In this document: piece after piece, positions 5,366 to 57,888 of the stretch
Numbering within the stretch: the first letter of the stretch is position 1
Layout: each line of letters opens with the position of its first letter
Sequence record: KP869105
Source: Escherichia coli O157 typing phage 7
Reading direction: 5' to 3' (one strand)
Length of the DNA: 64,000 nucleotides
Translations under genes and position numbers: made by a program
The notes under the pieces: generated by a model
Told to the model about the DNA's origin: nothing
The model's database searches: none
What the model saw: the letters and a program-made list of their open reading frames with translations, nothing else

Positions 5366-8300
5366 ATGGCTACTTTAAAACAAATACAATTTAAAAGAAG
5401 CAAAACTGCAGGAGCACGTCCTGCCGCTTCAGTATTAGCCGAAGGTGAATTGGCTATAAACTTAAAAGACCGTGTACTTTTTACTAAAGATGACCAAGGA
5501 AATATTATTGATCTGGGTTTTGCTAAAGGCGGTAGTATTGACGGGAATGTTATTCATACAGGCAATTATAACCAAACTGGCGATTATACTTTAAATGGCA
5601 CATTCACTCAGACAGGTAATTTTAATTTAACTGGTATTGCTCGAGTAACTCGTGATATTATTGCCGCCGGGCAGATTATGACTGAAGGCGGAGAACTTAT
5701 TACAAAAAGTTCAGGTACAGCGCATGTTCGTTTTTTCGATGGCAATAGTCGCGAACGTGGAATCATTTATGCCCCGGCTAATGATGGTTTAACTACACAA
5801 GTACTTAATATCAGGGTTCAAGACTACGCCGCTGGTAGCGAAAGCACTTATGCATTTTCAGGCAGTGGCCTATTTACTTCACCTGAAGTATCAGCATGGA
5901 AATCTATTTCGTCTCCACAAATTCTGACCGATAAAGTTATTACAAATGGGAAGAAGACAGGCGATTATGACATCTATTCATTAGCAAATAACACCCCATT
6001 ATCTGAAAGCACTACTGCTATTAATCATCTTCGTGTCATGCGTAATGCCGTTGGTTCTGGTATTTTCCATGAAGTTAAAGATAATGATGGGATAACCTGG
6101 TATGCCGGTGACGGGTTGGAGGCTTATCTTTGGTCGTTTACGTGGTCCGGTGGGTTGAAAGCGGGTCATTCTATTTCTATAGGTACCCCAGGCGGTCCAA
6201 AAGGATATTCTGAATTAGGAACTGCTTCGATTGCTCTTGGTGATAATGACACCGGGTTAAAATGGCACCATGATGGATATTATTTCAGCGTCAATAATGG
6301 AACGAAAACATTTTTATTTAGTCCTAGCGAAACAACTAGCCTAAGAAAATTTGTAGCTGGATATTCTACTAACGGAACCGATTTAACTACTCCTCCGACT
6401 GAAAACTATGCTCTTGCTACTGTCGTGACATATCACGATAATAACGCGTTTGGAGATGGTCAAACTCTTTTAGGATATTATCAAGGCGGTAACTATCATC
6501 ACTATTTCCGCGGTAAGGGTACCACAAACATTAATACTCATGGCGGTTTGTTAGTTACTCCAGGTAATATTGACGTTATTGGTGGTTCTGTTAATATCGA
6601 TGGTAGAAATAATTCTTCTACACTGATGTTTAGAGGTAACACAACTGGTAGTAGTTCAGTTGATAATATGACAATTTCCGTTTGGGGCAATACGTTTACT
6701 AATCCTAGTGAAGGTACCCGTAAAAATGTTATGGAAATTTCTGATGCAACTAGCTGGATGAGCTATATTCAACGAACAACTGCAGGTAAAGTTGAATCGG
6801 TTATAAATGGCACCCAGATTGTTAATGAAAACTTGACCGTAGTAAAAAATGCTACATTTGATGGTACAATCAGCGCAGCAGGTGAAATTTCATCTGGTGC
6901 AGTGAATGCGCTTCGCATTTGGAACGCAGATTATGGAGCCATTTTTAGACGTTCAGAAGGTAGTCTTCATATTATTCCAACTGCTTATGGTGAAGGCAAA
7001 AATGGTGATATCGGTCCACTTCGCCCGTTTAGTATGGCTTTAGATACTGGTAAAGTTACTATTCCAGATTTACAATCAAGTTACAATACGTTTGCTGCTA
7101 ACGGTTATATTAAATTTGTTGGTCATGGAGCGGGTGCAGGTGGTTATGATATTCAGTATTCACAAGCTGCTCCTATTTTCCAAGAAATCGATGATGCTGC
7201 TGTAAGCAAATATTATCCTATTGTTAAACAGAAGTTTTTAAATGGTAAAGCTGTCTGGTCTTTGGGTACTGAAATTAATTCAGGTACATTTGTTTTACAT
7301 CATTTGAAAGAAGATGGTTCACAAGGCCATACATCAAGATTTAATGCTGATGGTACAGTTAATTTCCCCGATAATGTTCAAGTCGGCGGCGGTGAAGCTA
7401 CTATTGCTAGAAACGGTAATATCTTCTCTGATATTTGGAAAACATTTACTTCTGCCGGAGATACTACAAATATTCACGATGCGATAGCTACTCGTGTTGC
7501 CAAAGAAGGCGATACGATGACTGGCAAATTAATCGTTAGAAGAGGCTCTGACGCTATTAACATTGCTGCCGATGAAAATGATTCTTGCTATTTACTTGGA
7601 ACATCGGGTGGAGCGAATTCATGGTACATCGGTAAAGGAGGAGCAGATGACACTGCTTCATTTTATAATTTCAAAACTACCGCAGGAATTACTCTTAATA
7701 GTGTTGGTGATATTGATTTTAACGTCAAAAATCAAGCTACTGCAGCTTCATTAAATTTTTATCGTTTATATTTAAATGGAAGACAATGGACAGCTACACA
7801 AGGTCACGGCTATAATAATCAATGGCAAACAGAAGCCCCATTCTTCGTTGACTTTGGTGAATCTGTTCCGAAAGATAGTTATATGCCTATAATTAAAGGA
7901 AGAAGCCAAATCATTAACGAAGGATATGCCACAAAGGCAGATTTTGGTATTATTCGATTGGGTGGAAATGCTACTTGGGGAAATGCAGTAATTCGTGTTG
8001 GTTCTGCGGAAAGCGGAGATAGCAGTCATCCTAATGCAATATTTGTGTTTCAGGCTAATGGTGATTTTAAAGCTCCGGCTGGCCTTCGTGCTGGTGTTAA
8101 CTTGGGCGTCGGCACAATTCCAGTATGGGGCGGAGCATCTATCGCCATCGGGGATGATGATACCGGTTTAGTTCATGGCGGCGATGGTCGAATTAATATG
8201 TATGCTAACTCGCAGCATATAGCATCATGGGGCACGATGTATCAATCTCATCCAGGCCTTTGGGATTCAAATGGAGCTTTTTGGACAGAAGTTGGCAAAG

Positions 8301-9567: not shown

Positions 9568-10224
9568 ATGGCAGCACCTAGAATATCATTTTCGCCCTCT
9601 GATATTCTATTTGGTGTTCTAGATCGCTTGTTCAAAGATAACGCTACCGGGAAAGTTCTTGCTTCCCGGGTAGCTGTCGTAATTCTTTTATTTATGATGG
9701 CGATTGTTTGGTATAGGGGAGATAGTTTCTTTGAGTACTATAAGCAATCAAAGTATGAAACATACAGTGAAATTATTGAAAAGGAAAGAAACGCACGCTT
9801 TGAATCTGTCGCCCTGGAACAACTCCAGATAGTTCACATATCATCTGAGGCAGACTTTAGTGCGGTGTATTCTTTCCGCCCTAAAAACTTAAACTATTTT
9901 GTTGATATTATAGCATATGAAGGAAAATTACCTTCAACAATAAGTGAAAAATCACTTGGAGGATATCCTGTTGATAAAACTATGGATGAATATACAGTTC
10001 ATTTAAATGGACGTCATTATTATTCCAACTCAAAATTTGCTTTTTTACCAACTAAAAAGCCTACTCCCGAAATAAACTACATGTACAGTTGTCCATATTT
10101 TAATTTGGATAACATCTATGCTGGAACAATAACCATGTACTGGTATAGAAATGATCATATAAGTAATGACCGCCTTGAATCAATATGTTCTCAGGCGGCC
10201 AGAATATTAGGAAGGGCTAAATAA
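9568..10224 (+). CDS. t: Holin t
   Basis: 218-aa ORF identical in length to T4 holin and matching remembered sequence (MAAPRISFSPSDILFGVLDRLFKDNATGKVLASR...); strong RBS AAAGGAGGG. Confidence 0.95.
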   Translation: MAAPRISFSPSDILFGVLDRLFKDNATGKVLASRVAVVILLFMMAIVWYRGDSFFEYYKQSKYETYSEIIEKERNARFESVALEQLQIVHISSEADFSAVYSFRPKNLNYFVDIIAYEGKLPSTISEKSLGGYPVDKTMDEYTVHLNGRHYYSNSKFAFLPTKKPTPEINYMYSCPYFNLDNIYAGTITMYWYRNDHISNDRLESICSQAARILGRAK

Positions 10225-10497
10225 TTATTTGTTTGTATACATCTCTAGATATCGATATACACCCTCAAAACCCTCGTTGAATTCGTCGATGAGGGTTTTC
10301 TTATCTTCTTGGGTTAATTCAGAAACAATTTTACGGAATGAATTCTGATTTAATTTTCTACCTTCATGCGTTACTCCAATCTCATTCAGAAATGCAATAA
10401 AATTAGCACGATTCTCAACAATATCTTCTCTGGAAAATTTAATCAAAATAGACGCAACAGTAATAATTTCACGAACTGTATCAATATTTTTATTCAT
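10225..10497 (-). CDS. asiA: Anti-sigma-70 protein AsiA
   Basis: 90-aa ORF matching remembered T4 AsiA (MNKNIDTVREIITVASILIKFSREDIVENRANFIAFLNEIGVTHEGRKL...). Confidence 0.95.
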   Translation of the reverse strand: MNKNIDTVREIITVASILIKFSREDIVENRANFIAFLNEIGVTHEGRKLNQNSFRKIVSELTQEDKKTLIDEFNEGFEGVYRYLEMYTNK

Positions 10498-24783: not shown

Positions 24784-24870
24784 GTTGTTTTCTGTATCAG
24801 TAGTTGATATTGATATAGTACCATAATCAACTACTGATGTATATAGTTTTATGAAAAAAAAATTTAAACT

Positions 24871-56389: not shown

Positions 56390-56659
56390 TTATCTAAGTA
56401 AGCAGTATGCTTGGAACACTTTCTCCATCATCTTTTTAAATTCATGAATATCTATATAATGACTAGTTAAATCAGCATGATATAAAAAGTCTAAAAACTT
56501 TTCATGTGTGCTAACATATTCACTTTCATTTAATTCAGAAATATGACTTTCCCAATATCCAACACCAGTCTTATTTGGGAAAAATGAAATTTTCATGCAT
56601 TGATCAACATAGAAAATGCCATAATTTTCAATAGTAATAGAAATATTAATAAATTTCAT
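56390..56659 (-). CDS. Hypothetical protein (89 aa)
   Basis: ORF in track. Confidence 0.5.
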   Translation of the reverse strand: MKFINISITIENYGIFYVDQCMKISFFPNKTGVGYWESHISELNESEYVSTHEKFLDFLYHADLTSHYIDIHEFKKMMEKVFQAYCLLR

Positions 56660-56871
56660 ACATTCATCAACTTAGCCGCTTCAAGAGCTGCATCTAGTGA
56701 ATCAAATTGGTCAACATATTCAATCAATTCGCCGTAATTGGCATATAACCACCATTGGCTAAATTCATACTCAAGGATGAATCCGTTTCCTTCAATTTGA
56801 GTTAAACCAATGCCATTTGTATTTACTTCATACCCAGCAAGACGTAAATCGTTAATAAGAGCTTCGTTCAT
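56656..56871 (-). CDS. Hypothetical protein (71 aa)
   Basis: ORF in track. Confidence 0.5.
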   Translation of the reverse strand: MNEALINDLRLAGYEVNTNGIGLTQIEGNGFILEYEFSQWWLYANYGELIEYVDQFDSLDAALEAAKLMNV

Positions 56872-56873
56872 AA

Positions 56874-57201
56874 TTATACCTTAGTAATTTTCAGGTCTGC
56901 AAATTTTTTCTTGCGTTGATTTTTCATGCGACGAATAGTCTTATCGGAAATTTCATGCTTTTGATAAGCTTTAGATTCTACGCCAAAAGCTTTAACATCA
57001 AATTCTGACAAGATATATTGAACCAACAATTCACGGACAGTATTGCGTCCAATCTTCTGATCATTCTGTTTCATCATTTGATGAAGATCTTTTTCCCATT
57101 TATCCAAAATTTGAGGAGTTACAATATCGCCTTTTTTCTAGCAAAGAAACTACTTTATCATATGCGTAAGAATTAATGACGTTTTTAATTTGAATAGTCA
57201 T
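56874..57201 (-). pseudogene. Frameshifted gene (about 108 codons if corrected): ATG at 57201, frame break in homopolymer run 57132-57137
   Basis: ATG 57201 with GAGGA RBS reads 23 codons then hits a stop; deleting one T from the T6 run (A6 on coding strand) joins it in frame to ORF 56874..57107, whose annotated start is a TTG. Confidence 0.55.
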
Positions 57202-57254
57202 ACATTATCCTCAATTACGTTAAAATTTTATTATCCAAAAAAGGGCCGAAGCCC

Positions 57255-57455
57255 TTAGCTAAACTTTTTGGCACCCTTCCAGCCTTCGTACATCATTGCG
57301 ACTGACGATGACAAAGCTCCTTCACATGCTGCATACTTATTATTCCAGAACCAATTTAGAAAAACTTCATCCTCAATACCATTGTGTTTCATGTTCTGGA
57401 AAAATTTGGCGCGTTCTTCAGCAATTCGCTGCGATAATTTAGATTCAGGATTCAT
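57255..57455 (-). CDS. Hypothetical protein (66 aa)
   Basis: ORF in track; hairpin 57241-57256 downstream. Confidence 0.5.
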   Translation of the reverse strand: MNPESKLSQRIAEERAKFFQNMKHNGIEDEVFLNWFWNNKYAACEGALSSSVAMMYEGWKGAKKFS

Positions 57456-57587
57456 TTAAATTTCCCAATTACCATTTTCATCAATAAATTTAATCCAGTC
57501 ATTTACTGACCACTTAGTTGTATCGCCTTTTGGAGTAGCATTTAAAGTATATAGCCCTTGCTTAAAAAGCATTCGTTTGATATTCAT
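57456..57587 (-). CDS. Small hypothetical ORF (43 aa)
   Basis: ORF track 57456..57671 trimmed to ATG 57587 with GAGGAAAAT RBS. Confidence 0.4.
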   Translation of the reverse strand: MNIKRMLFKQGLYTLNATPKGDTTKWSVNDWIKFIDENGNWEI

Positions 57588-57594
57588 ATTTTCC

Positions 57595-57888
57595 TCAGCT
57601 GTAACGATAACACTCGTTTGATTTACGTTTAGCAACTCGTTGAGAAGTATTATAATCAAAATCATCATCAATGTAAACTGATTTTTTCAACTTTCTTACT
57701 TCACCGCGTAATTGACGATTTAACTCATCTTTAACTTCTGAATCAATACCTTTCATTCTACGCCATTTATCTGAGCGAAAAATGTTTTCAACCATATCTT
57801 TATGACTTACCCCATCAGGAGCTTTACGCTTTCCGAAATAGTCATAATCACGCACTTTTAAGTCTTTACGACGATACGTTTTACCCAT
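57595..57888 (-). CDS. Hypothetical basic protein (97 aa)
   Basis: ORF track 57595..57933 trimmed to ATG 57888 (MGKTYRRKDLKVRDYDYFGKRK...) with AAGGAAATT RBS. Confidence 0.5.
   Translation of the reverse strand: MGKTYRRKDLKVRDYDYFGKRKAPDGVSHKDMVENIFRSDKWRRMKGIDSEVKDELNRQLRGEVRKLKKSVYIDDDFDYNTSQRVAKRKSNECYRYS

Follow-up and report, generated by a model that had tools for sequence, protein, structure and literature searches.

The genome of Escherichia coli O157 typing phage 7 raises a simple question in the window analysed here, which is a stretch of 64,000 nucleotides of sequence record KP869105. Two short reading frames lie one after the other at positions 56874-57201, and they would encode a single protein if one base were taken out of the homopolymer between them. 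Is this a sequencing error, a gene that is truly broken, or a gene that is expressed by a programmed frameshift? An earlier note on the same DNA named these three possibilities. The answer we arrive at is that the typing phage 7 stock very probably carries a genuine one-base insertion (A5 to A6), that replication slippage would be its source and that gene 55.2 would be null or strongly weakened as a consequence.

The homopolymer is a run of six T residues at 57132-57137 that reads as A6 on the coding strand, the gene being on the minus strand; it is the frameshift site and has one A more than the A5 of the relatives. The 5' fragment of gene 55.2 (57100-57201, minus strand) begins with the ATG at 57201-57199 and ends with the TAA at 57102-57100, i.e. 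it comprises 33 codons. The first 23 of these are native, MTIQIKNVINSYAYDKVVSLLEK, and they are followed by 10 out-of-frame codons, RRYCNSSNFG, and then by the stop. The Shine-Dalgarno motif GAGGA (57208-57212, minus strand) is located 6 nt 5' of the ATG, and the same motif is found in the phages wV7 and fPS-65. The out-of-frame rest of the gene, equivalent to codons 24-108 and the stop codon of the intact gene, occupies 56874-57131 on the minus strand. Deleting one A leads from the first frame into the ORF at 56874-57107, which has 77 amino acids and is listed with a start at TTG 57107. The run, the ATG with its ribosome-binding site, the 33-codon frame and the fusion with the TTG-started ORF had all been described in the earlier note, and all of them were recovered at exactly these positions. 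The product had been expected to have about 108 residues after correction; the repaired protein has 108, and the intact orthologues have exactly 108 as well.

Only one of the conceivable products of the split gene is on record. A 67-amino-acid ORF (56874-57077, minus strand), beginning with an internal ATG that corresponds to Met41 of gp55.2, is an exact match to AKE46082.1 (ECTP7_01215) in the annotation of E. coli O157 typing phage 7, a record of 167,747 bp. In exact protein look-ups the 33-residue upstream peptide and the 77-residue TTG-started ORF were unmatched. When the sequence was read directly, no Shine-Dalgarno motif was seen before TTG 57107 or before ATG 57077. The neighbours of the split gene on the minus strand are both intact: gene 55.3 (66 aa, 57255-57455) is located upstream, and gene 55.1 (71 aa, 56656-56871) is located downstream with its ATG 2 nt past the stop codon of 55.2. 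Between genes 55.3 and 55.2 there is an intrinsic-terminator-like hairpin, AAGGGCTTCGGCCCTT followed by a T-run (57241-57256, minus strand), and a terminator is annotated at the equivalent place in fPS-65.

Which gene is it that is split? The two fragments match successive parts of one protein family, phrog_1475, the first one at positions 1-27 (E = 2e-6) and the second one at positions 32-108 (E = 2.5e-40), and this indicates one gene cut in two rather than a chance pair of ORFs. The repaired product, obtained by removing one A, matches phrog_1475 with E = 4.6e-57 and PF24454 (DUF7570) with 141 bits (cut-off 27, E = 1.3e-41), and it is identical to T4 gp55.2 at 105 of 108 positions (97%). Moreover, the order 55.3 - 55.2 - 55.1 - (ORF) - gene 55 is the same in the window and in the annotations of wV7, fPS-65 and T4T; gene 55, downstream of 55.2, encodes the late sigma factor. 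The locus of wV7 and of Yersinia phage fPS-65 is a single 327-bp CDS of 108 amino acids that is annotated as gp55.2 and has A5 at the site. In the case of wV7 (AEM00730.1 / YP_007004810.1; HM997020) the DNA of the gene is the same as in the window but for one base, namely the one that turns the A5 and the intact 108-codon ORF of wV7 into the A6 and the split gene of the window. The uninterrupted ORF of about 108 codons that goes with the gp55.2 family is thus lacking in the window, where the frame is lost after codon 23 and a stop is reached at codon 34. Judged by its sequence, the locus is orthologous to gene 55.2 of phage T4, in other words a disrupted allele of a known and characterised family gene. 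We note that the gp55.2 cluster also contains a member of 101 rather than 108 amino acids, in Shigella phage vB_SsoM_113, which may reflect another start call or a truncated allele.

The extra A is unique to typing phage 7 among the deposited phages. A 901-bp query around the site matched 575 phage records, nearly all of them Tequatrovirus (T4-like), and the best match was Escherichia phage wV7, in which 900 bases correspond to the 901 of the query. A 71-bp query centred on the run matched 501 phage records, none of which was identical and 498 of which were at 98.6%, the equivalent of a single gap. Every one of these 501 records has A5 and none has A6, and since A5 is universal in the other records we consider A6 to be the derived state. 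The earlier note had envisaged that related phages might show the same two short ORFs; the relatives are intact with A5 (none of the 501 is split), so this arrangement is not seen in them. Among the 21 fetched loci that contain the gene start, 18 have A5 and the 108-codon ORF, and A6 is found only in the window and in two contigs assembled from sequencing runs, L012 and L014, to which we return below. The exact A6 pattern was absent from the IMG/VR viral contigs and the JGI metagenome contigs, the A5 control giving 5 matches in IMG/VR. No comment on the A6 allele was found in the searchable literature. A further contig (L015, ERR4089630_5219, positions 545-870) has A5 at the main run and a 55.2 gene that is split by a different 1-bp deletion, CATCAAATG to CATCAATG, with a stop at codon 41. 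This contig shows 14 gap openings in 913 bp when compared to the window, and it may represent noisy data rather than a second natural knockout.

The close relationship between the window and wV7 has a historical basis. According to Cowley et al. (2015, PMC4429339), the genome of typing phage 7 (KP869105) was obtained from 150-bp paired-end Illumina MiSeq reads, which Velvet joined de novo into 1-7 contigs; Prokka was used for the annotation. The UK laboratory had received the typing phages from Winnipeg, Canada, during the late 1980s and propagates them in broth, and typing phage V7 had previously been sequenced, as wV7, by Kropinski et al. 2012 (PMC4429339). It follows that the window and wV7 represent a single phage kept as two laboratory stocks, one in the UK and one in Canada. 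Positions 18693-64000 of the window correspond to wV7 1-45307 with 0 mismatches and one gap over 45,307 aligned bases, and the gap is the extra A. In the whole 64 kb there are two clean SNPs relative to wV7, at 8079 and 9257, both of them nonsynonymous: the window has Ala905 in gp37 where wV7 has Val, and Asn172 in gp38 where wV7 has Lys. As both are receptor-recognition proteins, the changes suggest that host-range adaptation differed between the two stocks, and the fact that gp37 and gp38 are both altered at the amino acid level argues for a real divergence.

A larger difference is found at the junction of t and asiA, where 86 bp (10194-10279) are present in the window and missing from the wV7 record. 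With these 86 bp both holin t (218 aa, ending in ...ARILGRAK) and AsiA (90 aa) are full-length in the window; the t and asiA CDSs of wV7 overlap by 51 bp, and its AsiA has only 76 aa. The version of the window is supported by a reassembly of run SRR1391166 (contig L016), and the absence of the 86 bp from wV7 is either an assembly deletion or a real deletion in an important gene of that stock.

As to the other typing phages, Cowley et al. placed typing phage 7 into similarity group 2 together with typing phages 3, 6 and 13 (PMC4429339). The records of the latter three (KP869104, KP869101 and KP869111) are Mosigvirus (RB69-like), typing phage 7 being a Tequatrovirus, and it is possible that the grouping or the labelling in that study is inconsistent with these classifications. 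Typing phages 3, 6 and 13 were also considered as a control for the A-run site and were rejected, as Mosigvirus is uninformative there.

Is the sixth A a real base, or does the phage DNA have A5, the sixth A existing in the deposited consensus only? There are several grounds for suspicion. Homopolymers are the classic place for indel errors in a consensus, A6 is absent from the 501 related records, and the extra A is the sole difference from wV7 in 45 kb. Moreover, the sequence is a draft-style short-read assembly in places: 10 Ns at 286-295 are located inside the long-tail-fibre gene 34, and positions 143-285 recur as 296-438, the only mismatch being at 143. Rather than biology, this reflects a gap in the scaffold followed by a 143-bp contig overlap that was left unmerged, and a Velvet assembly into 1-7 contigs fits such a gap.

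The behaviour of the other homopolymers and of the raw reads speaks against such an artefact. Illumina sequencing is not prone to consensus errors in runs of 5-6 bases. The 45.3 kb shared with wV7 contain 322 homopolymer runs of at least 5 bases, and 321 of these are equally long in the two records, among them an A9 run and 45 others of at least 6 bases. The A9 run (24854-24862, plus strand), which is intergenic and next to motB, is the longest homopolymer in the window. A different assembler on raw reads also gives A6, since the Logan contig L012 from SRR1391166 matches the window at 100% identity over 6.2 kb, the run included. Contig L016 of the same run is identical to the window over 4.8 kb that include both SNPs and the 86-bp stretch, and the exact gp38 variant of the window is on record only in SRR1391166 and in one contig of 50-200 kb. 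The shared sequence, the gp38 variant included, indicates that SRR1391166 comes from the same stock; this assignment is based on sequence identity and not on the run metadata. A6 is also found in contig L014 (SRR32591468_24236), which comes from an unrelated later run. The platform, the agreement of the run lengths and the recurrence of A6 in the assemblies of both SRR1391166 and SRR32591468 together make a sequencing or assembly error improbable. In terms of the three possibilities named at the outset, it is the true mutation that is best supported, with Illumina data, A6 in two runs and no other homopolymer discrepancy in 45 kb; the error is unlikely, and the programmed frameshift, which is discussed below, is disfavoured by the lack of a single split gene among the 501 relatives.

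L014 is also informative about the age of the insertion. This contig differs from the window by 4 SNPs in 1.6 kb, and its nearest sequences are the window and wV7 (4 mismatches), as opposed to at least 48 mismatches for all others. The SNPs are clustered within about 250 bp (window 57471-57723, the 55.3-55.5 region), and 2 of the 4 match alleles of other T4-like phages. L014 is therefore a genuine V7-lineage variant, in which the SNP cluster looks like a small recombination patch. An independent recurrence of A6 in L014 was considered as the leading reading and was rejected because its nearest sequences are the window and wV7 and because its SNPs are clustered in about 250 bp.

It can be argued from the same contig that the insertion is real and older, i.e. 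that A6 belongs to the whole V7 lineage, that the A5 of wV7 is a record error or a reversion, and that propagation in the UK had no part in it. L014 is further from the window (4 SNPs in 1.6 kb) than wV7 is (0 SNPs in 45.3 kb), and yet it has A6. There is at least one doubtful place in the wV7 record, the 86 bp missing at t/asiA with the 76-aa AsiA, and the laboratory that sequenced wV7 used 454 pyrosequencing on a contemporary phage and reported 454-induced frameshifts (PMC3496638). Nevertheless, it would be an unlikely coincidence for an error to restore exactly the ancestral, conserved A5 and an intact ORF, and the clustered SNPs of L014 look like a recombination patch in a descendant of an A6 stock. 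We therefore regard an origin in the whole lineage as rather unlikely, and an insertion in the typing phage 7 stock after the separation of the UK and Canadian stocks would fit the data better. The slightly different background in which A6 occurs in L014 makes this timing uncertain, as the insertion may also predate the split of the stocks or be recurrent.

Given that the insertion is real, could the phage still produce the full-length protein by +1 recoding, be it programmed or accidental? The mutant gene reads GAA-AAA-AGG-C at the site, and the tRNA-Lys in the P site would slip from AAA at 57135-57133 to AAA at 57134-57132 with AGG in the A site. The slipped tRNA would re-pair perfectly, GGC would be read next, and the result would be the exact wild-type protein of 108 amino acids. 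AGG is a rare codon in the phage (3.6% of the Arg codons, 1.6 per 1000), which favours such a slip. There is also a precedent in E. coli rpoB, where a one-base insertion is suppressed at about 5% via a slippery CCC followed by AGG, and rates of 1-10% have been described for non-programmed suppression (PMC10861913). In addition, gp55.2 has measurable effects even when it is expressed at a very low level (PMC4396842). On the other hand, none of the 501 relatives needs a shift, which means that this is not a programmed feature of the family, and no Shine-Dalgarno-like stimulator is found in the upstream TTTCTTTGCTAG. An FSscan reporter of the pspD window TAT AAA AGG T, which contains the same AAA-AGG, was not significantly above the random control (PMC2790909). 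In comparison to a +1 site of the prfB kind, the re-pairing P-site codon and the slow A-site codon are present, and the conservation and the upstream stimulator are absent. T4-type phages supply their own tRNA-Arg reading AGA/AGG, and this would lessen the pause at AGG.

A conserved programmed frameshift is thus not supported by the sequence comparison. A weak accidental +1 rescue at GAA-AAA-AGG could take place, by analogy to the rpoB case, and all in all we give the expression of the gene by recoding only a very small chance. Two further routes to a gene product were considered. Transcriptional slippage was rejected as unlikely, as a run of only 6 A residues is too short for it to be efficient. 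Independent translation of the downstream ORF was rejected as well, because neither TTG 57107 nor ATG 57077 is preceded by a Shine-Dalgarno motif and because the T4 mutant with an ATG-to-ACA change in 55.2 is inactive.

The consequence of the insertion can be judged from what is known of the T4 protein. T4 gp55.2 (12.7 kDa) is a DNA-binding protein that specifically stops E. coli topoisomerase I from relaxing negative supercoils, and its over-expression is toxic (Mattenberger, Silva & Belin 2015, PMC4396842). The gene is non-essential; the null mutant is about 5 minutes late, and in competition it falls back by about 16% in each growth cycle, a cost that was measured for T4 K10 on strain CR63 (PMC4396842). 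The effects of gp55.2 are measurable even at very low expression, and the ATG-to-ACA change abolishes the plasmid phenotype (PMC4396842), which implies that internal starts do not rescue the native T4 gene.

On this basis, we propose the following course of events for the insertion in the typing phage 7 stock. The DNA polymerase would have slipped on the A5 run and added one A. A one-base gain in such a run is a classical slipped-strand replication error, and with its five A-runs of at least 5 bases gene 55.2 is a fair-sized target for slippage. Ribosomes starting at the normal ATG would leave the frame after Lys23 and halt 10 codons later, releasing a 33-residue peptide, and the remaining 85 codons would be left without a ribosome-binding site of their own. 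The short product, the lack of a ribosome-binding site for the rest and the inactivity of the T4 ATG-to-ACA mutant taken together suggest that the allele is null or strongly weakened. The early stop could also lower the expression of gene 55.1 by polarity. Bottlenecks during the propagation of the stock would then have fixed the mutation by drift in spite of a modest fitness cost, which is conceivable because 55.2 is non-essential. What speaks against this scheme, apart from the timing discussed above, is that a cost of 16% per cycle would oppose fixation, unless the stock passed through tight bottlenecks or the loss costs less on the O157 propagating strain, and that the assembly is of draft quality in places (the N10 gap and the unmerged overlap).

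One may also ask whether the loss of the gene was an advantage rather than an accident. The knockout of 55.2 would in that case have been selected over decades on the O157 strain, for example because gp55.2 is harmful there or leads to abortive infection; the A-run would serve as an on/off site, and +1 slippage at AAA-AGG would keep up a trickle of full-length protein. The presence of A6 in L014 is compatible with a persistence or a recurrence of the allele. A role of gp55.2 as a trigger or an escape locus of anti-phage defence was not found in the four papers that turned out to mention gp55.2. We hold an adaptive loss to be improbable, and we return to the loss of gene 55.2 by slippage and drift as the reading on which the following considerations are based.

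What is found here is of an ordinary kind, a disrupted allele of a characterised gene that would have come about by a textbook mutation, and it is no new type of biological system. The practical value is accordingly modest. The 67-residue "hypothetical protein" of the deposited typing phage 7 genome is the tail of a broken 55.2, and its annotation should be corrected. More generally, the Canadian stock (wV7) and the UK stock (typing phage 7) of this reference phage are no longer the same: they differ by the probable knockout of 55.2, by two changes in receptor-binding proteins and by the 86 bp at t/asiA. This is relevant to anyone who works with the phage-typing scheme or employs wV7 for biocontrol. 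The two stocks also constitute a nearly isogenic pair with which the contribution of gp55.2 to the infection of pathogenic E. coli O157 could be gauged.

Finally, the locus can be compared to three known systems. The closest one in terms of the gene itself is T4 gene 55.2, which is intact and whose product is a proven topoisomerase I inhibitor, whereas the frame in the window is broken after codon 23; by analogy, the allele of the window would be expected to act like the engineered T4 ATG-to-ACA null. The rpoB insertion with its CCC-AGG site is similar in that an insertion creates a slippery codon before a rare AGG and that a +1 slip would restore the frame. It differs in the P-site codon and tRNA; moreover, 55.2 is dispensable, no feedback is known by which a weak rescue of it would be amplified, and suppression is hypothetical in its case. 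As regards the mutation itself, the frameshift hot spots of T4 in homopolymers, known from the rII and lysozyme genes, are associated with Streisinger's slipped-strand model. The insertion in typing phage 7 resembles these hot spots, being a single-base gain in an A-run of a T4-type genome that has a T4-type polymerase. The difference is that the T4 mutants were selected in the laboratory, whereas the allele of the window is one that has become fixed naturally in a stock.
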